Notes: generated by a model from the sequence alone, not told the origin. A stretch of DNA of 64,000 bases from Candidatus Marinacidobacterales bacterium (GCA_965250115.1 CBDFNJ010000001.1:1450175-1514174); one strand, 5' to 3'. Counted from the first letter of the stretch, positions 12,129 through 64,000 are shown. Made by a program: numbers and translations.

Positions 12129-12152
12129 AGCGAAGGGATGCTTCTTTTTTCT

Positions 12153-12812
12153 GGGTCTACGCGGATTCGTGTGGGTTGAAGACGGCATTTCTGGGTAATG
12201 GCGGAAGGAATGCCGCCACGATCTTCAGCTTGAGATATTCCTCGTCGCGATAGCCGTAGGCGCGTCGTTGCAGCACACGGATTTTGTTGTTGACCCCTTC
12301 AACTGGGAGGCGCAGACGTTCCATCTCGGCCACCGCCTTGTCCGGCACAGCTTGCCCACATGCGTCGCAAAACGCTAGGTGTAGCGCGAGTTGTTCGCCA
12401 GCCAGTCCAGGTGTTCTACATGCACACCGCCGCACCCAGGACAGTTGACGCGCCAACGCTCGTATTCCAGATAGATCCGCCAGCCTGCCAACGACGGGTC
12501 GCGGACCCGGCACACTTGCTTGTCATAGCGCCCCCGGCACCGTTGCCCACAGTAAGAGCACACAGCTGTTTTTTCGCCTCTTGAGCTGGATGACGCGGGC
12601 GTATCGGTCACCGAATAGACCCTTCAATCCGGCACACCACGAAACCTGGCAGCGCAAACAGCGAGCGGATCGACTGGGAATTTTTCACTCGGTTAGCCTA
12701 TCCTAAAAATGGACCACTTCTCAGCACCTGATGAAGTACTCGATACCTTTTCCACACAATGAGTTACACTGTTTTTCCGTCAGGACTTACCCACACGAAT
12801 CCGCGTAGACCC
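12153..12812. mobile_element. internally deleted ISL3-family insertion sequence (MITE-like, ~660 bp) bounded by 24-bp perfect inverted repeats
   Basis: GGGTCTACGCGGATTCGTGTGGGT at 12153-12176 is perfectly inverted at 12789-12812. Between these repeats lie N- and C-terminal fragments of an ISL3 transposase. Confidence 0.6.
12157..12611 (-). pseudogene. ISL3-family transposase remnants (N-terminal zinc-finger fragment and C-terminal fragment, different frames, middle deleted)
   Basis: The N-terminal fragment is CSYCGQRC...VRDPSLAGWRIYLEYERWRVNCPGCGGVHVEHLDW...RYT. The C-terminal fragment is ...GVNNKIRVLQRRAYGYRDEEYLKLKIVAAF, the hallmark ISL3 C-terminus. Confidence 0.6.
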
Positions 12813-14163
12813 ACAAAAGTTATCGATCCCGCACTCTCGACCTCGGAAAGATAGCGCATGGGCGATACGAGGAGCTCGCTCTGGCGAGTGGGTGAGAGCA
12901 CGGTTGCGTTCTCCGGGAGCGCTCCCAGAGCGCCGCTCGCGAAGTCCCTCGCGCTCTGCAGGTCTCTGCGATCCGGATTGAGCTGAAACGCCAAGGGATC
13001 CAGGGGGAGCTCGACGGGAGCGTCGGAGGAGAGCTTCCGCGCGTCGCTCCATCCTCGCCTGACGCACCGCCATGGGCGCGAAGCGGTAGATGACCAGCGG
13101 CGAGGTCGAGAGCACGATCGCGATCGCGAAGCCTTGCCAGCTCCCGCTCGAAAGGAGCTTCCACCAGCCGAAGCCGACGGCTATCGACAATATGACCCAC
13201 ACCGGCAGATAGGCGGGAACGGGCCTTTCCAGATCCAGAGTGATCACGAGAAAGCCATAGAGGAGAAACATTGGAAACACGAGAAAGAACACGTACTTCT
13301 GGCGGCGATAGAGCTCCCACAGCCCGATCAACCCAATCACTGCGGTCCAGGGCGGAAAGTTCAAGAGAAGCATCGCTCCGAAACGGAGCAGGGACTCCTT
13401 CAACGGCTGATCCCAGACGAGCATCATGTGATCCCAGAAGAAGAGCCAGGTCTTTTGCTCCGCCGGAATTTGAAACCCTGTCCTGGTCCACCCCCATGCG
13501 GCGACGGCAAGCGCCAATGACGCACCGACCACGAATACGGCAAGACCTCGGAAGCGCACGGCCCCGGCGTTGCGAATCAACGGAGGTTGCACGACACGAA
13601 CGAAAATGAGAATGATCGGAATCAGAAAGGCGAGGAGCAAGTTGTTTGCGAGCGCGAGGCCCAGAATCCCCATTCCCAAATAGAGATTGAGCGCGCCGCC
13701 GAGGTTCGCGAAGCGGATCAGGAAATAGAGGACCGCCGCGAGGAGCAATGCGTCGAGCGGCTCGGGGCCCGGTGTGACCGCTCGCATCCAAAACGTGTGC
13801 GAGACACCCAGCGAGGATCCCCACCCGTCGGGAAATGAACTGGGGCGCCATCTGGAGAAGGATTTTCAAGAGCAGATAGACGAACAGGCAAGCGCCCGCG
13901 GCGAAGGCCGCCGAAGCCCAGTTCGCGCGCCGAGCCAGCTCGCCCCAGGGAAGAAACAAAAACGGCTGAGAGAGAAAGACGAACAGCGGTCGATCCCAGG
14001 GTCCTTCACCGAACTCCGTTTGTGCGACGCGTCTCTGGTATTCCGCGCCCTCCATCCAACCAACGTCGGACGGCCCGGTAATAAAGTAGAAACCGAAAGC
14101 ACCGACGAAGACCGCGACCGCGACTCCGATGTTCAGCGCGTCCCTTGCAAAGCGACCTTTCAA
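12780..14163 (-). pseudogene. large polytopic membrane protein (DUF2723/PMT-like glycosyltransferase fold), frameshifted and 3'-truncated by the IS
   Basis: The N-terminal 125 aa (14163 to ~13800) are in one frame and the continuation (13787 to 12780) is in another. The last 11 codons (CGSTRIRVGKS) are encoded by the IS inverted repeat, so the original C-terminus is lost. Confidence 0.45.
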
Positions 14164-17198: not shown

Positions 17199-19136
17199 TT
17201 GACCCGGGCTCCGAGACTCGCTAGCATGTTTGTCGCTCCCCCCCGACACAGAGAAAACGGAAGACCGAGAAGACCGAAAGGTTTGTCGGGCGAGATGCGT
17301 TCTGTTTTCGTGTGGACGAAGGAGCCTGGGTGGCTTTCGCGTGACGCCTATCCGGAGGTTCATCAGCGTTTCGAGATCGAGCAGATCCACGAGGACTCGA
17401 CACTTCCGTCGCGTGCCGGGGTTCTTCTGGTGGACCAAGCGCTGGTCATCGAGCGACGCGCGGACATCGAAGCCTTCGCACGCGACCCGGGAAAAGTGAG
17501 GCGACCCGTCATCGCCGTGGCGCCTGCACCGGATTCCAGTGACGAGCTCGAGATCGTTTTCGAGGTCGTCGAGCGGCCGCCCCGGCCAAACGATCTTCTG
17601 CGCAAGCTCAACAACGCGACCTACTATCTGGACAACCAGCTTCGCCTCGAGGAGTCGCAAAGAGCGGCCGAGCAAAAGGCCCAGGAGCTCGTCGATCTGC
17701 AGGTTATCGGCATCGCTCTTTCGGCCGAGCACGACCACGAACGGCTTCTGAATCTAATCCTCAGCAAGGCTCGTGAGATCACGAACGCGGACGCGGGAAG
17801 CCTGTTTCTCGTTGCCAAGTTGGATATGCCGATCGAGCTGCCCGACGGTACCTTGCGGCGCGTCGGAGGACGATGGCTGCGCTTTCGTCTGTCGCAAAAC
17901 GACTCTCTCGAGCTCCGTTTCGAGGAGGACATCCTCGAGATCGGTTCGGATAGCATCGCGGGTTACGTCGCTCAAACCAGCGAAACGCTCAACCTCGAGG
18001 ACGCCTATGCGCCGCCGGCGGACAAGCCTTTCGTGATCAACCGAAGCTTCGATCAAGCCACGGGCTACCGAACCCGCTCGATCCTCGTGGTTCCGATGCA
18101 GAATCACGAGGGGGAGAACATCGGGGTTCTCCAGCTCATCAACAAGAAGAAGGCGCGCGACATGGTCCTCGACAGTGCGGAGAGCTTCGAGCAGAACGTG
18201 CTCAGCTTCGACGAGCACGACGAGCGCCTCGTGCGGTCACTGGCGAGCCAGGCGGCGGTCTCCGTCGAGAACAACAGTCTCTACCTTCAGCGAGAAAACC
18301 TCTTCGCCCGCTTCGTCGACGCGGCCGTCCAGGCCATCGAGAGTCGGGACCCCACGACGCAGGGTCACTCGAGGCGCGTCGCCGCCATGACGACAGAGTT
18401 GGCGCGCGTGACGAATCGAGTCGAGCGTGGACCCTATCGAGACTTCCGATTGAGCAGCGAGCAGGTTCGCGAGCTGAAGTACGCGGCACTGTTGCACGAT
18501 TTCGGCAAGGTCGGGGTCAAAGAGCGGGTTCTCGTCAAGGCAACCAAGCTCTACCATGGCCAGCTTTCCGTCGTGCGTCAGAGATTCAAGACCATTCGAC
18601 GAACGCTCGAAGTGCAGTATTTACGCCAGATGCTCGACCGCCTGCTTCGCAACGACGCCACGCCCGAGCAAATCGAGTAGATGAAAGAAGAGCTCGCCCG
18701 GAGCCTGAGCGTCGTCGATGAGGCTCGGGGTGCCGTCGAGGGGGCCAACAAGCCAACGGTGCGCCACCATTCCGACTTCGCGCGACTCGAGGAGCTCGGA
18801 GCCGAGACTTTCGAGGACGTCGATGGGAGCGAGAAGCCTTATCTCGAGCCCGAAGAGATCGTCTCCTTGACGGTTTCGAGAGGTACCTTGACTGATGGCG
18901 AAAGAAAGATGATCCAATCGCACGTCGACCATACCTATGATTTCCTTTCTACGATTCCGTGGACTCGGGACCTGCAGAACATCCCGGTTCTCGCGCAGAG
19001 CCACCACGAGAAGCTCGATGGAACCGGCTACTCGAATGGTCTCGGCGCCGAAGAGATACCGCCTCAAACGCGCATGATGACGATTTCCGATATCTACGAC
19101 GCGCTCACCGCTAGAGACCGACCCTACAAACCCCTC
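17199..19136 (+). pseudogene. GAF + HD-GYP domain c-di-GMP phosphodiesterase, interrupted by an in-frame TAG (18678-18680) and 3'-truncated by an IS3 insertion
   Basis: It has HD motifs (HSRRVAAMT..., LLHDFGK) and HHEKLDGTGYS (the HD-GYP signature with P to S). ORFs 17199-18680 and 18681-19205 share the same frame across a single TAG. Homology stops at 19136 (..DRPYKPL), where the IS left repeat begins. The start is uncertain (TTG 17199, ATG 17226 or 17293). Confidence 0.65.
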
Positions 19137-20842
19137 TGTGCCAACATCCTTGAGACAATCCGCTCCTTGAAATTAGTGTCGAGGGCGGAGGAGGATCATA
19201 GATGAGTACGTTGATTGAGAGAATGACGTCGGCGAGGTCGGAAGGAGCCCGTAGGGCGACTGGAGATCTCGCCGACCGTGGTGCTGCGGCGGGGGTCTGC
19301 GATCTCGAAGTGAGTGAGAAAGCGAAGCGCCGACGTTTCAGCGCTGAATACAAGCTGCGGATCGTTCGCGAGGCGGACGCCTGCAAGGGTGACGGTGATG
19401 TGGCGGCGCTTCTACGTCGCGAGGGACTGTACTCGTCGCATCTATCGAGTTGGCGTCGGCAACGGGACGAGATCGCCAAGGCGGGATTGACGTCGAGAAA
19501 GCGAGGTCGGAAGGCGAAGGCAGAGGCTCCACGGATCAAGGAGCTCGAGCGCGAGAACGCCCGACTCCAGCGCCGGCTGGCTCGGGTGGAAACGATGCTA
19601 GAGATCCAAAAAAAAGCCTCCGAGCTCCTGGGGATCCCCCTGAACCCGATCGACGACGACGAGAACGATTGATCGTGGCGGCCGAGGAGCTGGCGGGTCG
19701 GATTGGACAAACGGCGGAAGCTTGCGAGGCGCTGGGCGTGTCTCGTTCCACGTTGTATCGTCGACGCCGACCGGTGACGTCCAAGCCGAAGCGCCGTCCT
19801 CGGCCGCAGCGAGCCCTCGACACGACCGAGCGCGAGAGAGTCCTCAGTGCATTGCATTGCGAACGGTTCGTCGACAAGGCGCCGGCCCAGGTGTGGGCCA
19901 CGCTTCTGGACGAGGGAATCTACCACTGTTCGATCCGCACGATGTACCGGATTCTGTCGGAGCACGGAGAGGTGCGTGAGCGCCGGAACCAGCTGCGGCA
20001 TCCGAACTATCAGAAGCCGGAGCTCGTGGCGGAAGCGCCGAACCAGGTTTGGTCGTGGGACATAACGAAGCTGCGCGGCCCGGTCAAGTGGACCTACTTC
20101 TACCTCTACGTGATTCTCGACATCTTCTCCCGGTACGTGACCGGGTGGATGTTGGCTCGGCGAGAAAGCGCCGAGCTCGCCCGTCGTCTCATCAGCGAGA
20201 GCTGCCTCAAGCAGAACATCGAAGCCGACCAGCTCACCATCCACGCAGACCGCGGCAGCTCGATGCGAAGCAAGTCCGTCGCCTTGCTCCTGGCCGACCT
20301 CGGCATAACCAAGACGCACTCGCGGCCGTACGTCTCGAACGATAATCCCTACTCCGAGTCCCAGTTCAAGACGATGAAGTATTGCCCTGAATTCCCAAGC
20401 CGCTTTGGCTGTCTGGAAGACGGCCGCCTGTTCTGCGGCGGTTTCTTCGACTACTACAACAACGCGCACCGGCACTCGGGACTGGGGCTCATGACGCCGG
20501 CCGCCGTTCACTACGGTCGCGCCGACGAGCTCAACGCCGCCCGGCGCCAGGTCCTTCTCGAAGCTCATCGGGCTCACCCCGAGCGCTTCGTGCACGGAAC
20601 ACCTCAACCTCCGGTTTTGCCTCGTCAGGTCTGGATCAACCCGCCGCCCGAGAAAACGACGCCACAGGAGGCCCTAGGAGCCACTTTCTCGGGGCGCCCC
20701 GTACCTGAGCTACCCCCGGATTCAAGCTATCCGGACGCGATCGCGTCGGAACCCAATCGCGACCGCACCGCGCTCACGCCCCGTCCTTCACTGATCGAGG
20801 CTCACTAAATGCAGCCTGCGGGTGTCTCAAAGTTGCTGACAC
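19137..20842 (+). mobile_element. IS3-family insertion sequence (~1.7 kb)
   Basis: Imperfect terminal inverted repeats: TGTGCCAACATCCTTGAGACAATCCGC (19137-) against the reverse complement of 20815-20842 (TGTCAGCAACTTTGAGACACCCGCAGGC). orfA and orfB are joined by an A8G slippery run. No clean target-site duplication is seen. Confidence 0.75.
19202..20808 (+). CDS. IS3-family transposase OrfAB (orfA 19202-19672; orfB reached by programmed -1 frameshift at A_AAA_AAG 19608-19616; DDE/rve integrase core)
   Basis: OrfA has the HTH and leucine zipper (LERENARLQRRLARVETMLEIQKK). OrfB has the rve domain (WSWDITKL...ILDIFSRYVTGW...HADRGSSM...YNNAHRHSGLG). Confidence 0.8.
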
Positions 20843-20977
20843 GTTCCGAACCCGCCGTCAAGACCGAGACCGCTCTCGGCTACCTCGAGGAAGAGGCCAA
20901 GCTCGGCCAGCTCGACCTGGAACTGCTGGATCTTTTTATCGAGGCGAAGGTCTACGAGGAGGGCCTGACGAACTAGC
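20843..20977 (+). pseudogene. displaced 3' end of the same HD-GYP gene
   Basis: Immediately after the IS right end, the reading frame gives RSEPAVKTETALGYLEEEAKLGQLDLELLDLFIEAKVYEEGLTN*. This is the typical HD-GYP C-terminal tail, so the IS inserted precisely inside the gene. Confidence 0.55.
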
Positions 20978-45218: not shown

Positions 45219-45294
45219 TGGTGAGCCGCGAAGGAATCGAACCTTCAACCTACGGATTAAGAGTCCGTTGCTCTGCCAGTTGAGCTAGCGGCCC
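45219..45294 (-). tRNA. tRNA-Lys (anticodon CTT), CCA encoded
   Basis: The reverse complement GGGCCGCTAGCTCAACTGGCAGAGCAACGGACTCTTAATCCGTAGGTTGAAGGTTCGATTCCTTCGCGGCTCACCA folds as a cloverleaf. The anticodon loop is CTCTTAA. Confidence 0.8.
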
Positions 45295-45313
45295 ACTTTC
45301 AAGGTTTCGTGGC

Positions 45314-45390
45314 TGGTACGCCTGAGAGGATTCGAACCTCCGACCTTCTGCTCCGGAGGCAGACGCTCTATCCAGCTGAGCTACAGGCGC
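45314..45390 (-). tRNA. tRNA-Arg (anticodon CCG), CCA encoded
   Basis: The reverse complement GCGCCTGTAGCTCAGCTGGATAGAGCGTCTGCCTCCGGAGCAGAAGGTCGGAGGTTCGAATCCTCTCAGGCGTACCA has the anticodon loop CTCCGGA. Confidence 0.8.
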
Positions 45391-57564: not shown

Positions 57565-58464
57565 TTACTCCCCGCTGATTTTCGTTGCCGCCATTTCCTC
57601 GATGAAGTTCACGATTCCGGAATGGTCCTGGTCACCTTTACCGTTGTTCACGAGCGCGCCTATCATCTGCTGCACGAGCGACGTCACGGGAAGCGGCACA
57701 CCGAGCTCTTTCCCGGTGAGGAGCGCGTTGTTCAGATCCTTCTGGTGCAGCCGAATGCGGAACCCCGGCGCGAAATTGCCCTCGATCATCATCGGAGCCT
57801 TGGCGTTCAGCACGTTGCTTCCCGCGAGCCCACCTCGAATCGCCTCGAAGACGACGCTCGGATCGAGTCCAGCCTTTCGGGCGAGCACCAGGGCTTCGCC
57901 AACCGCCTCGATGTTCGCGGCCACGATGATCTGATTCGCGAGCTTCGTCGTATTCCCCGCGCCATAGCCACCGCAGAGCACGTGGCTTTTTCCGACAACG
58001 CGAAAAATGGGCTCCGCACGCGCGAAAACGTCCGCCTTGCCCCCGACCATGATGGCGAGCTGCCCCGCGATCGCTCCGGGCTCACCGCCGCTCACGGGCG
58101 CATCGAGAAAGTCGACTCCCTTTTCTTCGCAAGCCTGCGCGATCTTCTGGGACATAGCAGGTGCGATCGAGCTCATGTCGATGACAACGGCTCCCCGTCC
58201 AGCGCCCTCGAGCACGCCTTGCTCGCCCAGGATGACCTCCTCGGAGTCGAGCGAGTCGGGAAGCATCGTGACGATGGCATCGACCCCTTCGGAGCAGCCT
58301 CGGGCGGAGTCCGCTGCCGTAGCTCCATCGGAGACGAGCTCGTCGACGGGTGGCCTGAAGCGATCGCGGACCGTCACCGCGAAACCCGCCTTGAGGAGGT
58401 TCTTCGCCATCGGCTTGCCCATGATCCCGAGCCCCACAAATCCGACGTTCTTGATTGCAACCAC
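57565..58464 (-). CDS. NAD(P)-dependent 3-hydroxyisobutyrate/2-hydroxy-3-oxopropionate reductase family dehydrogenase
   Basis: A GFVGLGIMGKPMAKNL Rossmann motif, then the catalytic region typical of GarR/MmsB. Confidence 0.8.
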   Translation of the reverse strand: MVAIKNVGFVGLGIMGKPMAKNLLKAGFAVTVRDRFRPPVDELVSDGATAADSARGCSEGVDAIVTMLPDSLDSEEVILGEQGVLEGAGRGAVVIDMSSIAPAMSQKIAQACEEKGVDFLDAPVSGGEPGAIAGQLAIMVGGKADVFARAEPIFRVVGKSHVLCGGYGAGNTTKLANQIIVAANIEAVGEALVLARKAGLDPSVVFEAIRGGLAGSNVLNAKAPMMIEGNFAPGFRIRLHQKDLNNALLTGKELGVPLPVTSLVQQMIGALVNNGKGDQDHSGIVNFIEEMAATKISGE

Positions 58465-58656
58465 GCTTCACTCTCCTTTCGGTTGACGAAAACCCCGTTG
58501 ATTATAGTTCCGCCGCCCAAGAACGCCACCTCGCCACACGCGGACGTTGCGCTCGACGTGGCCGGCCGTGCCGCCAAGTGCAATCGTCAGGAGTTTCTAG
58601 CGTTGTGTTGGCGTCGGCAATTTCGTATGCTCCATCAACCCAACAGGAGAGGAACT

Positions 58657-60595
58657 GTGAGGAAAAACGTATTCGGAATCGCGACCAGTCTTGCCATTGT
58701 GGCCCTGGCGAACGCTGTCGTGGCGGCGCAGGACGTCCGCCCTCGGAAAGAAGATCAGCGCGAGGCGCAGAAGATCTACTCACCTTATGTCGTGCGGACC
58801 GCGACTGACGCGAACTTCGCCGAGGGTGTCTACTGGGGCGATACACACCTTTTATTCCACCGATTCCGGCATGCTCGGCAACACCCTCGGCCCCGAGGAG
58901 GCCTACCGCTTCGCTAGGGGCGAGGAAGTCCTGTCGGCCGCGGGACTCCGAGCCCGTCTGATCCGCCCCCTAGACTTCCTCGTAGTGTCAGACCATGCCG
59001 AGAACCTGGGCCTCGCTCCGATGATCGCAGAGTCCAACTCCGAGCTGCTCAAGAACGAGTGGGGCCGGATGATCCACGACATGGTGAAGGCCGGCGACGG
59101 GCGCGGTGCGTTCCAGAAGTGGCTCGTGGATGCGGTTATCCCAGGTGAAGACCCGATCGACAATCCGAGGATGACACGCACGGTTTGGGAGCGCGAGATC
59201 GCCTTCGCGGAGCAGTACAACGAGCCCGGACGATTCACTGCTCTGATCGGGTTCGAATGGACATCGATTGCCACGACACAAACTCCGGGCAATCTGCACC
59301 GTGTCGTCATCTTCAAAGACGGCGGCGACAAGGCGGGGCAGGTCCTTCCCTTCAGCGCGGCGGACTCGGCCGATCCGGAAGATCTGTGGGACTACCTGGA
59401 CGCCTACGAGGAGAACACCGGCGGAAGCGTTCTCGCCATCGCCCACAACGGCAATGTCTCCAACGGGCAGATGTTCCCACTCGAGCGGCTGAATGGCCAA
59501 CCGATCGACCGTGCCTACGCCGAGACCCGCATGCGTTGGGAACCGCGGTACGAGGTCACCCAGATGAAAGGCGACGGCGAGGCGCATCCCTTCCTGTCTC
59601 CCAACGACGAGTTCGCCGATTACGGCACATGGGACAAGGGCGACATCGCTGGTCTCAAGCCCAAAGAGGACTGGATGCTTCAGTATGAATACGCGCGCAC
59701 CGCCTTGCAGGTGGGTCTCCAACAGGAGCAGCTCCTCGGCTTCAACCCGTACAAATTCGGCATGATCGGGAGCACCGACGCGCACACCTCGCTGGCCACC
59801 ACCCGGGACGAGAACACCTGGAGCAAGACCCCGACCATGGAGCCGTCTCCCGATCGCTGGGAGCACGTCGTGATCGCGTCCAGCTCCGGCGACGAGTCGC
59901 TGACGACCTATTCGTACGAGACGCTCGCTTCAGGGCTCGCAGGGGTCTGGGCCCGCGAGAACACGCGTGAAGCGCTCTTCGAAGCGATGCAGAAGAAGGA
60001 AACCTACGCTACTACCGGTACGCGCATCACGGTGCGTTTCTTCGGCGGTTGGAACTATGGGGACGACGACGTCTACCGGCCGGACGCGGTCGCCATCGGC
60101 TACAGCAAAGGCGTGCCGATGGGCGGTGACCTGCCCAAGCGTACAAGAGAGACAGACGGCCCCACCTTTCTGGTAGGCGCGTTGAAGGACCCGTGGTCCG
60201 GCAATCTCGACCGCATTCAGATCATCAAGGGCTGGATGGATGAAAAGGGGGAACGCCACGAGAAGGTCTATGACGTGGCTGTTTTCGATGGACGCAGCAT
60301 CGGTCCTGACGGCCGCTGCAAAACGCCGGTTGGCAACACGGTTGATGAGGCTAATGCGACGTACTTGAACAGTATCGGAGATGCTGAGTTGCGTGCGGTT
60401 TGGACGGATCCGGATTTCGATCCGAATCGCCGCGCCGTGTATTACGCTCGTGTGCTCGAGATCCCGACGCCGACTTGGCAGGCCTATGACGCCAAGTTTT
60501 TCGGGATAACGATGCCCGAAGCTGTGCTGCTGAGCCATCAGGAACGCGCCTATACCTCGCCAATTTGGTTTACGCCGCAGCAATCTAGCCAATAA
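58657..60595 (+). CDS. DUF3604-family secreted protein, with apparent 1-nt insertion in a T4 run near 58850
   Basis: The signal peptide (RKNVFGIATSLAIVALANAVVAAQ) and YWGDTHL are in frame 1, and the rest (TDSGMLGN... to ...QERAYTSPIWFTPQQ) is in frame 2. RBS AGGAGAGG 58646-58653. Confidence 0.6.
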
Positions 60596-60614
60596 AGAAG
60601 GAGATTCCCGCAAT

Positions 60615-62060
60615 ATGAGCAAACTAGCCCAACCATTCCCCGCGCTCCTGATTGCTGCAATTCTGGCGTGTCTGATGGGGTCGGCAACGGCCCAGGAAAA
60701 GCCCAACATCGTCCTGGTCTTCATGGACAACTTCGGTTGGGGGGAGCCCGGTTTCAATGGTGGTGGAATCGTCCGGGGCGCGGCCACGCCGCGGCTCGAC
60801 GAGTTGGCTTCCGAGGGTCTTCGTCTCACGAACTTCAACGTCGAAGCGCAATGCACGCCCTCTCGCTCAGCAATGTTGACCGGCCGCTATGCGATCCGCA
60901 GTGGTAATGGGACTGCCCCCCTTGGCGGCGGTGTGTATGGCCTCGTTCAGTGGGAAGTCACCATGGCCGAGATGCTTTCGGATGCCGGCTACAGCACCGG
61001 GATGTTCGGGAAGTGGCACCTGGGCCGCACGGACGGCAGGTTCCCGACCGACCAGGACTTCGAAGAATGGTACGGAATCCAGAACTCCACGGACGAATCG
61101 GCCTATTCCCAACTACAAGGCTTCTCGGAAAGCGGAGTGGAAGAAACGTTCGTCTTGGAGGCACGGAAAGGTGAACAGCCGAGGAAGGTGCGGCCGTGGA
61201 ACTTGGAGTACCGGCCGCTCATCGATGGCGATCTGACGGAGAAGGCGATCGAATTCATGCAGCGTCAGTCGAAGAGCGAAAAGCCGTTCTTCCTTTATCT
61301 TCCCTACACGGCGACACACTACCCGACGCGCCCGCATCCGGATTTTGTAGGCGCCACGGGTAACGGGACCTGGGCGGACCTCCTGCATCAGATCGACACC
61401 TACAACGGGAGGCTGCTGGATGCGATTGATGAGCTCGGTATCCGCGACAACACCATCTTTATCTTTACTGCCGATAACGGACCCGAGGCGGTGCCCCACG
61501 GAAACGACACTCTCGCAGTCGATACTCCCAGTCCAGGAACTGCCGGTCCCTGGCGCGGCACCCTGTTCACCGGATTCGAAGGCAGCCTGAGGGTTCCCTT
61601 CGTCATCCGGTGGCCGGGCAAGATCCCGACTAGCGCCAGCAACGAAATCGTCCACGAAATGGATCTATTCCCCACCCTCGCTCGAATCGCGGGTGGTAAG
61701 GTGCCCGAGGACCGCGCCATCGACGGGGTAGACCAGAGCGAGTTCTTCTTCGGCAAACAGAAGAAGTCCAACCGTGAGGGCGTTATTGTTTACATGGGGG
61801 ATGAGATTTATGGAGTCAAGTGGCGCAACTGGAAAGTGAACTTCAAGGAGCTGGACACGGTCTTCAGCGAGACGCGGGAGTACGGAATGCCGCGGGTTCA
61901 TAACCTTCTTACCGATCCGCAGGAAAGCATAAACGTTCTCTTCCCCCATACCTGGGTCCCGAAGGCGGCTTTGGGGCAATTGGGAGCGCATGTGGCCTCG
62001 CTGAAGGCACATCCCCCAATCAAGCCCGGAACGCTAGATCCCTACCTGCCGCCCAAGTGA
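60615..62060 (+). CDS. arylsulfatase-family enzyme (formylglycine motif CTPSR), secreted
   Basis: It has the signal peptide, the sulfatase signature CTPSRSAMLTGR, and GKWHLG. Confidence 0.85.
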   Translation: MSKLAQPFPALLIAAILACLMGSATAQEKPNIVLVFMDNFGWGEPGFNGGGIVRGAATPRLDELASEGLRLTNFNVEAQCTPSRSAMLTGRYAIRSGNGTAPLGGGVYGLVQWEVTMAEMLSDAGYSTGMFGKWHLGRTDGRFPTDQDFEEWYGIQNSTDESAYSQLQGFSESGVEETFVLEARKGEQPRKVRPWNLEYRPLIDGDLTEKAIEFMQRQSKSEKPFFLYLPYTATHYPTRPHPDFVGATGNGTWADLLHQIDTYNGRLLDAIDELGIRDNTIFIFTADNGPEAVPHGNDTLAVDTPSPGTAGPWRGTLFTGFEGSLRVPFVIRWPGKIPTSASNEIVHEMDLFPTLARIAGGKVPEDRAIDGVDQSEFFFGKQKKSNREGVIVYMGDEIYGVKWRNWKVNFKELDTVFSETREYGMPRVHNLLTDPQESINVLFPHTWVPKAALGQLGAHVASLKAHPPIKPGTLDPYLPPK

Positions 62061-62068
62061 TGACGGCT

Positions 62069-62121
62069 CAGGAACGCCTCTATACCTCGCCGCCATCGGC
62101 TTGCCCATGATCCCGAGCCCG
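62069..62121 (+). repeat. 53-bp composite repeat: 24 bp resembling the DUF3604 3' end (60538-60561, 2 mismatches) directly joined to 29 bp identical to the garR-like 5' coding region (58405-58433)
   Basis: TCAGGAACGCCTCTATACCTCGCC | GCCATCGGCTTGCCCATGATCCCGAGCCC; both halves were found by eye as direct repeats of upstream sequences. Confidence 0.6.
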
Positions 62122-62128
62122 ACTCCGC

Positions 62129-62611
62129 CTAAGGACGCCACATCGTCTCGATGACGAGCGGCAAGTCGATCGGCTCGTAGCCCCACTTCGGCTTGCCTTT
62201 CCATCCTTCGAGCTCGAGCTCAGCAAGGGGTTTGTCGGGCGGTTTCGCGGGAGAGGGAACTTCGGGTATCACCCAACCGCGTGGGTTTTTGAAGCGGAAC
62301 TTGCCTGTTGCGAGTAGCTCGACTCGATAATCGCCATCGTGAACCAAATGGTGGTGGTAACTACAGAGATTACATAGGTTCGAGAGCTTGGTCACACCTC
62401 CCGCGGCCCAGAACTCGAGGTGGTGCCCCTGCACGAATGTGGACTCGCAGCCGGGCCACACACACGTGGGGTCGCGAGCGTCGAGAGCGCGGCGGATCGC
62501 GGGCGGAATCGTCCGCGTTTTGCGTCCGACGTCCAAGACGTTGCCCTTCTCGTCCTGTTGCATCTCGACGATCGAGGCGTCGCATGCAATCCGTCTCGAC
62601 GTTTCCGCGGA
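62129..62611 (-). pseudogene. HNH endonuclease (DUF222-HNH family) C-terminal part; 5' portion separated by group II intron insertion
   Basis: It has RRIACDASIV...LDVGRKTRTIPPAIRRALDARDPTCVWPGCE...HH...H. Recognisable homology stops exactly at ~62611, and the ORF upstream of that is antisense to intron domain I. Confidence 0.55.
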
Positions 62612-62613
62612 AA

Positions 62614-64000
62614 TTGCGCCAGGCAAAGCTTGGAGAAAGGGGAAGCCATGTAACAGGGCATGTCGGAAACTTTCTAGTGGAACCCAGCAGGTGAGAGTCC
62701 TGCGCCGGGAAAGGCTAGCCACCGCCCGGAACCGAGTGTTGCGTAGCTGGTCGCGAGGCCAGCGACGAAGCGTACACAGGGAGGGTGCAGGCCGCGCGAT
62801 TGAGCCTCGAAAGGAAACAAGGGTTGCGGAGCCGACGTCGTTTTCTGAGCGGAAGGCAGCATCACCCGCGCCGTACTGGCAAGGAGCGAGTGGTCCGCCG
62901 GGGTCGAAGAGCGTGGCATGTACGCAAGGGTTCCCCAGGAACCTGGGAGGTCTCGTACTCTCCATCCGAAGAATGCGGGTTGTGGGCACCGCAGAACAAA
63001 TAGCCCAGGCCCAGCGAGCGTGGCGCCCATGCCCGTTGGGAGCGAACTAAAGAGGCGTCGGGTGGAACCGCCAAAGCGAAGGCAACGAAGCGAGTGGGGG
63101 AGGCGAGAAGTCGGAGCCTGTGCATAGTACCGGAGAAGTGGGGGAACTCACTCCAGAGGACCCCATGGAGGGAAGGCGGCAGGCCAATCTACGGAACTTC
63201 AGGAGGGACAGATGGCGCGGAGTTTGAGCCGCGAGGTCATCTCAACGAAACGAGAGAAGATAGCGAAACTGGCGAGGGAAAAACCGAAACTGGTGCTTAC
63301 CACACTGGCCCACAACATCGACGTGGGCTGGTTACGTGAGGCCTACCGTCGCACCCGCAAAGACGGGGCCGTGGGAGTGGATGGTGTAACGTCGGCGCAA
63401 TACGAAACCAACCTGGAAGAGAACCTGACGAGCTTGCTCGAGAGGTTCAAAACGGGAAAGTATCGAGCGCCGGCGGTACGCCGCGTCCACATTCCCAAAG
63501 AAGGTGCAGGCAATAAGACCCGGCCCATTGGCATACCGACACTGGAGGATAAGGTACTTCAGCGAGCGGTGGTCATGGTCCTGGAATCCGTATACGAGGA
63601 GGACTTCTTGGACTGCTCGTATGGGTTCCGTCCAGGTCGCAGCCAGCACCAGGCAATCGATGCGTTGTGGCGGGGGCTGATGGACAACGGAGGGGGCTGG
63701 GTCATCGACCTAGATATCCAGAGCTTCTTCGACAGTGTCGACCGAGCCCAGCTGAGGAGCTTTCTGGACCAGCGGGTGCGCGACGGTGTGATACGCCGCG
63801 CGATCGGGAAGTGGTTGAAAGCCGGAGTAATGGAAGAAGATGTGGTCTGGTATCCGGAACAAGGAACTCCCCAAGGCGGAGTGGTCAGCCCCCTGCTCTC
63901 TAACATCTTCCTACACGATGTTCTGGACATCTGGTTTCATCAGATGGTCCAACCGCGCATGAAGGGACGCTCGTTTATGGTGCGTTACGCCGATGATGCG
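62614..64000 (+). mobile_element. group II intron (5' part: domains I-III and start of the intron-encoded protein); runs off window
   Basis: The 5' end TTGCGCCAGGCAAAG resembles the GUGCGCCCAGAUAGGGUG consensus. There is ~600 nt of structured GC-rich RNA, then an RT/maturase ORF. The 5' boundary is +/-3 nt. Confidence 0.6.
63212..64000 (+). CDS. group II intron reverse transcriptase/maturase (partial, continues beyond window)
   Basis: The RT domains 0-5 motifs are [30 protein letters not shown] and YADD at the very end. RBS AGGAGGG 63201-63207. Confidence 0.8.

Follow-up and report, generated by a model that had tools for sequence, protein, structure and literature searches.

We analysed one strand of a 64,000-nucleotide stretch of a Candidatus Marinacidobacterales bacterium genome (GCA_965250115.1, CBDFNJ010000001.1:1450175-1514174), referred to below as the window. 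The following genes and elements lie at the locus:

57565-58464, minus strand: garR-like 3-hydroxyisobutyrate / 2-hydroxy-3-oxopropionate reductase gene, intact (Pfam NAD_binding_2, 6e-52; NAD_binding_11, 3e-41)
58599-58656, plus strand: leader and RBS of the DUF3604 gene, for which no match was found anywhere
58657-60595, plus strand: DUF3604 gene, frameshifted (Pfam DUF3604, 3e-221)
60615-62060, plus strand: arylsulfatase gene, intact in the window (Pfam Sulfatase, 3e-52)
62129-62693, minus strand: C-terminal (HNH) part of a DUF222/HNH gene, lacking its last 5 codons (Pfam DUF222)
62694-64000, plus strand: group II intron, D1-D4 and a reverse-transcriptase ORF running off the window (Rfam RF02005, 163.5 bits)

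Four strain contigs encode garR proteins of 100% identical sequence. The intron separates the C-terminal part of the HNH gene from its N-terminal part, lies antisense to that gene and is 99.8% identical to the copies in L085, L206 and L209. The HNH copy itself is 98.5% identical to that of L085, with identity stopping at 62133; HNH homologues end in MWRP(R/G)SxxE, and the window copy ends at MWRP.

The DUF3604 and sulfatase genes form a cassette that is decaying in every strain. A tblastn comparison with the L001 orthologue reveals a change of frame in the window DUF3604 gene, where 8 nt are missing between 58851 and 58852 relative to L207 and L209, destroying the GDTHLH motif. Collapse of a tandem repeat (CACACCTT) was ruled out as the cause by the strain comparison, which identifies an 8-nt loss, CATACTTC. 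The sulfatase shares 85-89% amino acid identity with its closest relatives, its protein has no exact database record, and its homology to L001 ends at 62064. In every sister strain the sulfatase gene is disrupted by an IS or a deletion. Our searches for the origin of the cassette returned neither a donor locus nor a source for 58599-62067; relatives arrange the sulfatase and DUF3604 genes otherwise.

A composite repeat downstream of the sulfatase

Directly beyond the sulfatase gene lie two short segments, B′ and A′, that match parts of the DUF3604 and garR genes:

58405-58437, minus strand: A, the source-side copy of a 33-nt repeat, garR codons 11-21 (VGLGIMGKPMA)
60538-60561, plus strand: B, DUF3604 codons (H)QERAYTSP, the likely template of B′, ending in TCGCCA (60557-60562)
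62061-62067, plus strand: TGACGGC, probably native sulfatase 3′ flank (L084 has GATGACGACT at the same place)
62068-62091, plus strand: B′, a 24-nt patch of the DUF3604 3′ end
62091-62123, minus strand: A′, garR codons 11/12-21, matching L210 garR at 30 of 31 positions

An earlier note had described a 53-bp chimera at this site. Both of its matches exist and abut, although its coordinates were off by 1-2 nt, and the order it reported also holds, with B′ followed directly by A′ in the same orientation. The two segments overlap by 1 nt, giving a composite of 53-56 bp. B′ matches B, the 3′ end of the DUF3604 gene, in direct orientation at 22 of 24 positions, the two mismatches lying side by side (GCC to CTC); A′ matches A in direct orientation at 32 of 33, with 30 nt exact. 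In a self-comparison of the whole window, A/A′ is the top-scoring repeat (E 3.6e-9). By itself B/B′ is at chance level in the all-against-all comparison of the window (E 0.8); it becomes significant because it is anchored beside A′. No match of its level was found in 100 shuffles, and only 7 of 3,000 24-mers drawn at random from the window have any partner at two or fewer mismatches. The second DUF3604 or garR copy that the note had suggested looking for is not present elsewhere in the window.

Each fragment covers the most conserved motif of its family, QER.YTSP in B′ and VGLGIMGKPMA in A′. Among 120 unrelated metagenomic VGLGIMGKPMA genes, 3 are 31/32 identical to A′, and 62060-62088 agrees at 26 of 29 positions with L008, a DUF3604 paralogue that is unrelated. 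Nucleotide identity alone is thus no proof of local copying: short matches over highly conserved protein motifs mimic local copies, so that synteny is needed to interpret them. The template of B′ appears uncertain on these grounds, with two mismatches to B and an about equally good match to the L008 paralogue over 29 nt. No B′-like sequence lies 3′ of the sulfatase in any other orthologue examined, and none of the nearest sulfatase loci, 80 from genomes together with L081-L084, L212 and L213, contains the junction.

Two further candidate matches were dropped. An inverted patch, 62121-62134 against 58298-58311 (12/14), is at chance level, and a 9-nt identity that the left joint shares with the terminus of B (ACCTCGCCA) is not significant because just 2 of its nucleotides are free.

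Outgroup synteny and the target duplication

Local copying of A′ is proven by synteny with the outgroup contig L210, whose garR shares 94% amino acid identity with that of the window. In L210 garR and its 5′ leader run without interruption into the 3′ end of the DUF222/HNH gene, and no DUF3604 gene lies next to garR. Window 57568-58532 is collinear with L210 10897-9934 (93%), and window 62125-62259 matches L210 9953-9819 (85%, E 3e-38), a stretch contiguous with garR in L210; the two matches overlap there by 20 nt. Comparison with this one outgroup shows an ancestral garR/HNH adjacency that has been split in the window by a 3.56-kb insertion (58530-62090), flanked by a direct duplication of its ~125-bp target (58405-58529 and 62091-62141). 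The boundaries of the insertion are marked by the following elements:

58405-58529, unstranded: D, the left, intact target copy, made up of garR codons 21 to 1, the leader 5′ of the gene and the initial 6-9 nt of the HNH end (CGCCAC)
58530-58531, unstranded: CT, two extra nucleotides at the left junction (CGCCAC-CT-CGCCAC)
58532-58598, minus strand: P1, which forms the insertion's left end, 67 nt standing alone from the N-terminal region of a DUF222 gene (KLLTIALGGTAGHVERNVRVWR)
62125-62141, minus strand: distal remnant of D′, the right target copy, with 11 nt of garR 5′ leader and CGCCAC of the HNH end, matching 58513-58529 at 15 of 17 positions

D is contiguous with garR, and its leader carries a TATAAT box and an RBS; the HNH 3′ end within D is already truncated. 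The ancestral leader/HNH junction is preserved at 62125-62141, directly beside A′, and this joint is the derived joint of L210, unlike the native HNH end of ~10 homologues. Synteny with L210, together with the duplication, identifies A′ as the proximal remnant of D′. This right-hand copy has been shortened by 74 nt, with loss of the -10 box, the RBS and codons 1-11. Recombination between D and D′ might in theory have restored the contiguous order in L210 and made it a revertant; no pre-insertion allele was found within the species.

The insertion consists of the 67-nt DUF222 fragment, the DUF3604 gene, the sulfatase gene and the 24-nt B′ patch at its right end, and codes for DUF3604 and the sulfatase only. 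P1 matches the DUF222 genes of L085, L206 and L209 at 63 of 67 positions, with homology stopping abruptly on both sides. We found no inverted repeats at 58530 or 62090 and no transposase in the insert.

Recurrence of the junction in sister strains

A 140-nt stretch across the junction is identical in L209 (ERZ25071127), a different haplotype from a separate ENA assembly, which is set apart from the window by SNPs, one IS256-like insertion and a deletion of 39 nt. In a third assembly, L206 (ERZ25069191), the junction has been remodelled: B′ is partly deleted, A′ is degraded, and 34 nt of the resulting mosaic are a patch whose template was an HNH allele other than that of L206 itself. Both joints are common to all strains retaining both flanks, and no intermediate allele was found among the strains compared. 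Because L209 carries the identical junction in an otherwise different structure, the assembly chimera that the earlier note had offered as an option is rejected; the 53-bp junction is real and almost certainly a non-functional scar. The same population shows other microhomology or slippage events, comprising 39-nt, 8-nt and 7-nt deletions besides the 34-nt patch of L206.

Microhomology at the joints and the likely origin of the insertion

All four ends carry the motif CGCCA, at 58405, 58524, 58532 and 60558; its background frequency is 0.0022 per nt. The left joint reads CGCCAC-CT-CGCCAC and the right joint TCGCC-GCCATCGG (TCGCC-GCC-A). These novel joints share 5-6 nt of microhomology, with TCGCCA at both sources of the right joint, but neither is a clean microhomology join, the left carrying an extra CT and the right an extra GCC. 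Several short segments meet at the junctions (67 nt of DUF222 in P1, 24 nt of DUF3604 in B′ and the re-copied target D′), and there are plausible templates for A′, B′ and P1, the last 94% identical to the local DUF222 gene.

These features suggest that the composite is probably the right-hand junction scar of an old insertion, most likely made by a single microhomology-mediated insertion-duplication of the template-switch type. The comparisons above show the duplication, the insertion, the ancestral adjacency, the reality of the junction and the microhomologies; as their cause we infer one replication-based multiple template switch (MMBIR/FoSTeS type). The ancestor carried garR, a short 5′ leader and the adjacent 3′ end of an already truncated DUF222/HNH selfish gene, all on the minus strand. 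In the inferred event a polymerase would have departed from the target at CGCCAC, copied 67 nt of a DUF222 gene and then the cassette, jumped 1.5 kb backwards for a further 24 nt with CGCCA at their end, and re-entered the target at CGCCAT, 119 nt behind its point of departure. About 125 bp of target were duplicated, from garR codons 1-21 through the leader to the first HNH nucleotides. The left copy stayed with garR and is functional; the right copy stayed with the HNH gene and later lost 74 nt, leaving A′ and the 11-nt leader remnant. Campbell-type integration of a circle carrying D, or end joining at staggered breaks, may have made the insertion instead of a template switch, as the present data do not tell the three apart.

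The pattern agrees with what has been published on MMBIR, whose events are complex and have microhomology of 2-5 bp at junctions close to repeats (Hastings, Ira & Lupski 2009, PMC2621351), and the junctions of stress-induced amplification in E. coli provide a comparison case for MMBIR/FoSTeS (PMC3161906). The present locus is like these in having several breakpoints within ~100 bp, 5-6-nt microhomology at the joints, templated segments of 24 and 67 nt in direct orientation from loci 1.5-7 kb away, a duplication that re-entry behind the departure point would produce, and endpoints beside multi-copy elements (DUF222/HNH, intron, IS). It is unlike them in that it is a natural, fixed variant of an uncultured bacterium read from sequence, a setting in which a replicative origin is not demonstrable; in the 2-3 extra nucleotides at the joints; and in a 3.4-kb middle segment for which no source was found.

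Alternative explanations

A Campbell-type ('ends-in') integration is the first alternative, and an unlikely one. Here a circular or circularised DNA carrying the garR 5′ end, leader and HNH end beside the cassette would have undergone homologous recombination with the chromosomal copy, duplicating the 125-bp homology; the joints between B′ and A and between the HNH end and P1 would predate integration, having been made when the circle formed. The arrangement of D, insert and D′ in direct orientation is exactly the product of a single crossover, both joints required for circle formation share CGCCA, and IS elements and recombining alleles abound in the population. Against this, the cassette would already have to be flanked by joints to D on either side in some earlier molecule, a requirement that moves the problem one step back, and neither such a circle nor a second locus was seen. 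The insert holds no plasmid, integrase or replication genes, and the event differs from known single-crossover integrations in its short homology (~125 bp), in lacking vector, plasmid or phage functions and in its illegitimate microhomology ends.

Quite unlikely, in our estimate, is that the junction, instead of being one old scar, may be a recurrently re-patched hotspot at which breaks are repeatedly repaired by short-patch templated synthesis. We leave this reading open because the L206 mosaic differs and because the intron reverse transcriptase and the HNH nuclease remnant lie within 1 kb. Group-II-intron-like reverse transcriptases have been proposed to act in double-strand-break repair, and patch synthesis at such a hotspot could, by analogy, conceivably be RT-assisted or RNA-templated.

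The earlier note had read the composite as the joint of a tandem duplication or circle of the unit 58405-60561, which spans from the garR 5′ end to DUF3604 codon -12; such a joint would later have been relocated, or left after deletion of the rest. The note's suggestion of a duplicated-then-deleted or templated scar came close to the truth; the rearrangement and duplication are genuine, and A′ is a second copy of the garR 5′ end. The B-then-A order and direct orientation fit a joint of that unit, which TCGCCA at both source sites could have mediated. The flanks, however, are not the interior of the unit: the 3′ end of the sulfatase lies on the left, and on the right of A′ the distal leader/HNH junction, collinear with L210, stands in place of garR codons 1-10. 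The 58405-60561 unit is not supported; what was duplicated is the ~125-bp target, and B′ is the terminal patch of the insertion between its copies. Tandem duplication would also put the joint upstream of a second DUF3604 gene, whereas it is found beyond the sulfatase; garR of the outgroup has no DUF3604 gene beside it, and several extra deletions and a translocation would be required. We regard this origin as very unlikely.

Highly improbable is the reading in which B′ and A′ each descend independently from a decayed paralogue, B′ from a DUF3604b-type gene downstream of the sulfatase and A′ from another member of the garR family, and are visible only where the families are most conserved. In its favour, 62060-62091 reads VMTAQERLYTSP in frame and includes the L008 match, in L001 and L082 the sulfatase is followed by a DUF3604b gene of like orientation, and the near-identical unrelated genes noted above resemble A′ as well. 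Yet the leader/HNH joint that comes next to A′ is the one of this locus, so that A′ is garR itself and no paralogue; VGLG would be preceded by G, a position at which F stands in 119 of 120 homologues; and three independent deletions, each leaving 24-33 nt, are improbable. For A′, where nucleotide identity is weak evidence either way, L210 synteny rejects a relic. For B′, a DUF3604b relic reaching 62060 stays open, although 62061-62067 is explained just as well by native flank of the sulfatase, which offsets the L008 match.

An artefact or chimeric contig is extremely improbable, even for an IS-rich region assembled from an uncultured organism: the flanks of both fragments differ from those of their sources, which no simple graph mis-join could bring about, and L209 and the related version in L206 come from different assemblies. 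The faintest possibility is a functional element in the sulfatase 3′ UTR, a trans- or cis-antisense regulator with 33 nt antisense to garR mRNA codons 11-21, for although 32/33 complementarity lies directly 3′ of the sulfatase stop on the sulfatase strand, 62050-62140 has no terminator-like site, Rfam match or stable structure (z = 0.20 and 0.27 on the two strands, the same as shuffles), the sulfatase is broken in every sister strain, A′ is degraded in L206, and its sequence is fully accounted for as a duplication remnant.

Significance and comparison with other insertions

The junction is an ordinary rearrangement scar, almost certainly without function of its own and of little biological consequence in itself. 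It offers a natural and cleanly resolved example, with outgroup and strain support, of a two-gene cassette entering a new chromosomal context without any transposase, using 5-6-nt microhomologies and leaving a long target duplication and short templated patches behind. For annotation, 62061-62141 and 58530-58598 are junction debris, neither genes nor regulatory elements.

Templated insertions are also known from synthesis-dependent microhomology-mediated end joining and alt-EJ, through Pol theta in eukaryotes and through A-EJ and Ku/LigD in bacteria. The present joints resemble them in reiterated microhomology (CGCCAC-CT-CGCCAC; TCGCC-GCC-A) and short templated filler, but patches of 24-67 nt from kilobases away and a 125-bp duplication exceed typical filler. 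As in transposon or IS insertion, direct target repeats flank the inserted DNA; unlike there, the repeat is 125 bp long, against 2-14 bp, and terminal inverted repeats and a transposase are lacking. A genuine IS256-like insertion at the same locus in the sister strains has a normal 8-bp TSD (GAAGTCCA).

An insertion splits garR from an HNH gene

The genes around the junction are listed below in window positions.

57565-58464, minus strand, garR-like reductase (Pfam)
58657-60595, plus strand, DUF3604 (Pfam)
60615-62060, plus strand, sulfatase (Pfam)
62129-62693, minus strand, DUF222/HNH gene, C-terminal part (Pfam)
from 62694, plus strand, group II intron, its RT ORF running off the window (Rfam)

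In the outgroup L210, a JGI contig whose garR protein is 94% identical to that of the window, garR and its 5′ leader run straight into 135 nt of HNH 3′ end. The L210 counterpart of window 57568-58532 is 10897-9934 (93%) and that of window 62125-62259 is 9953-9819 (85%, E 3e-38), and the two segments share 20 nt there. These alignments show that an ancestral garR-leader-HNH adjacency has been split by a 3,561-bp insert (58530-62090), which is flanked in direct orientation by a left target copy, D (58405-58529), and a right copy, D′ (62091-62141). On the minus strand the right junction reads ATGTGGCGTCCTTAGGCGGAG joined to TCGGGCTCGGGATCATGGGCAAGCCGATGGCG, and its derived HNH-end/leader joint is that of L210 (ATGTGGCGTTCTTGGGCGG...). 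Past this joint 74 nt are missing and the sequence restarts at garR codon 12, while 62125-62141 matches 58513-58529 at 15 of 17 positions. The contiguity in L210 and the common derived joint indicate that A′ (62091-62123), the second copy of garR codons 11-21, is no free-standing copy; on these alignments, A′ and 62125-62141 together are a degenerate second copy of D. The window HNH copy is 98.5% identical to that of L085 until homology breaks off at 62133. In about ten homologues the HNH C terminus reads ...MWRP(R/G)SxxE; the window copy has MWRP and then a stop, and is thus five codons short.

Gone with the 74 nt missing from D′ are the conserved TATAAT box, the RBS and codons 1-11 of the duplicated garR start; this deletion might have been favoured by selection as a way of stopping antisense transcription into the sulfatase. 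The garR leader itself (58465-58529, minus strand) has a perfect TATAAT at 58501-58506 and the RBS AAAGGAGAG, both kept in L210.

The earlier note had proposed a rearrangement or duplication scar formed by joining the two ends of the segment 58405-60561. Its general idea is borne out by the D/D′ duplication around the insert and by L210 synteny; the specific unit finds no support, since the right flank of A′ is the leader/HNH joint found in L210.

Parts of the insert, in order
CT, at the left end
58532-58598, P1, 67 nt from a DUF222 N-terminal region, sharply bounded on both sides, identical at 63 of 67 positions to full DUF222 genes in L085, L206 and L209
leader, 58 nt
DUF3604
sulfatase
7 nt resembling the native sulfatase flank of L084
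B′ (62068-62091), a 24-nt match to the DUF3604 3′ end

P1 stands alone in the garR/DUF3604 intergenic region, and we take it to be the insertion's left end.

One and the same group II intron lies antisense within DUF222/HNH genes at an identical site in the window (62694-64000), L085, L206 and L209, and at the same site in P0127, a DUF222/HNH copy of only 66% identity. This distribution suggests that a conserved site in the DUF222/HNH selfish-gene family is the intron's homing target, entered in the non-spliceable orientation.

Identity of the two repeats

The chimeric repeat described in the earlier note is present, with coordinates shifted by one or two bases. B′ (TCAGGAACGCCTCTATACCTCGCC) matches 60538-60561 at 22 of 24 positions and A′ matches 58405-58437 (A) at 32 of 33, including 30 identities in a row; both are direct repeats, and A′ and B′ share one base. 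In an all-against-all comparison, A/A′ was the top repeat of the entire window (E 3.6e-9) and B/B′ alone was at chance level (E 0.8), so that B/B′ is meaningful only because B′ abuts A′. No B/B′-type match arose in 100 shuffles, and 7 of 3000 random 24-mers had any comparable partner.

Each repeat spans the motif that is best conserved in its protein family. Of 120 unrelated metagenomic genes with the VGLGIMGKPMA coding sequence, three have 31/32 nucleotide identity to A′. Window 62060-62088 agrees at 26 of 29 positions with a DUF3604 paralogue of L008, also unrelated, and over the same stretch this paralogue is 23/24 identical to the local DUF3604. Nucleotide identity alone is therefore no proof of copying from the neighbouring genes.

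The junction in sister strains

A garR protein of 100% identity is encoded on four contigs, which come from three further ENA assemblies; their DNA is 99.4-99.8% identical to the window, yet they differ structurally. L209 departs from the window in three respects: an IS256-like element of 1.46 kb sits in its sulfatase (8-bp TSD GAAGTCCA at 61763-61770), 39 nt have been deleted between CTAGCC repeats (60591-60629), and its HNH allele is divergent. It is nevertheless identical to the window over the stretch 61766 to about 62199, which takes in all of the filler. The L206 junction (L206 4843-4992, window 62059-62210) is remodelled: B′ is partly lost, A′ is kept at 26/29, and the HNH 3′ end is replaced by a 34-nt patch that is 100% identical to HNH-internal 62320-62353 of the window and L085 and only 27/30 to L206's own HNH allele. 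The assembly chimera offered as one option in the earlier note is very unlikely, because the junction recurs identically in the otherwise differently built L209, and is remodelled in L206. The different mosaic of L206 alone raises the possibility, which we consider improbable, that this joint is a hotspot patched again and again in connection with the neighbouring elements, HNH and group II intron RT.

A likely template-switching origin

CGCCA occurs at all four ends, 58405 (CGCCAT), 58524 (CGCCAC), 58532 (CGCCAC) and 60558 (CGCCAA, the end of B), against a background of 0.0022 per nt. The left joint is CGCCAC-CT-CGCCAC; the right joint is TCGCC-GCCATCGG, a common TCGCCA with GCC reiterated. 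The alignments show an insertion with a target duplication of ~125 bp and microhomology at both joints; at its ends the insert has short displaced pieces of two genes that lie nearby, and every piece is in direct orientation.

A single series of replication-based template switches would account for these features most economically. Synthesis would have left the target at CGCCAC, copied 67 nt of a DUF222 gene and then the cassette (the DUF3604 and sulfatase gene pair), switched back to copy 24 nt of DUF3604 up to CGCCA, and re-entered at a CGCCAT lying 119 nt back from where it had left, so that D was re-copied. This rearrangement agrees with the published MMBIR/FoSTeS signature, in which events are complex, microhomology is 2-5 bp and the endpoints lie close to repeats (PMC2621351). 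Less probably, a circle that already carried D could have integrated in Campbell fashion, or staggered breaks could have been closed by end joining. The junction is a well-resolved case of a known kind of mutation and no new system. No source locus for the cassette was found. In the closest relatives, the Thermoanaerobaculia MAGs L001 and L082 (85-86% aa), sulfatase and DUF3604 are convergent with no garR nearby. Between the two genes in L001 (11440-11720), the closest MAG, a ~62-bp unit stands four times in tandem, each with a hairpin (GGAAATGATAACCATCATTTCC); it is a REP-like intergenic repeat.

Decay of the cassette

Stable folds, terminators and Rfam matches are all absent from the junction region, and no function is apparent for it. 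By its lesions, the cassette is decaying independently in every strain. The window DUF3604 lacks 8 nt (CATACTTC) at 58851/58852 relative to L207 and L209, a frameshift that destroys the HxH metal motif in GDTHLHTSYS, intact in those two contigs; L206 is frameshifted at that position too, by the loss of 7 nt, indicating that one spot was struck by two independent frameshifts. Both L206 and L209 carry IS insertions (61763-61770) and the 39-nt deletion (60591-60629), by which DUF3604 has lost its stop and the sulfatase its start. L207 has two IS insertions (58783-58787 and 61252), and L208 has lost the cassette wholly behind an IS at 58541. The IS types at the locus are strain-specific (IS256-like, ISAZ013-type and a DDE_Tnp_1 element), and the locus is, on this comparison, a rearrangement hotspot. 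The sulfatase ends AAG TGA TGA in the window (62055-62063) and AAG CGA TGA in L084 (2148-2160), which may reflect a C-to-T nonsense change relative to L084 that shortened the protein by one residue.

Other elements in the window

An IS3-family element (19129-20850) is 99.4% identical to one in L085, and an ISL3-like remnant (12147-12818) has a 30-nt inverted repeat at its two ends (12147-12176 / 12789-12818, 29/30). Genes for tRNA-Lys(CTT) and tRNA-Arg(CCG) are adjacent at 45219-45390. A tRNA-Arg-like sequence recurs near sulfatase/DUF3604 loci in other phyla (L036, L045 and L052), which probably just reflects tRNA conservation.
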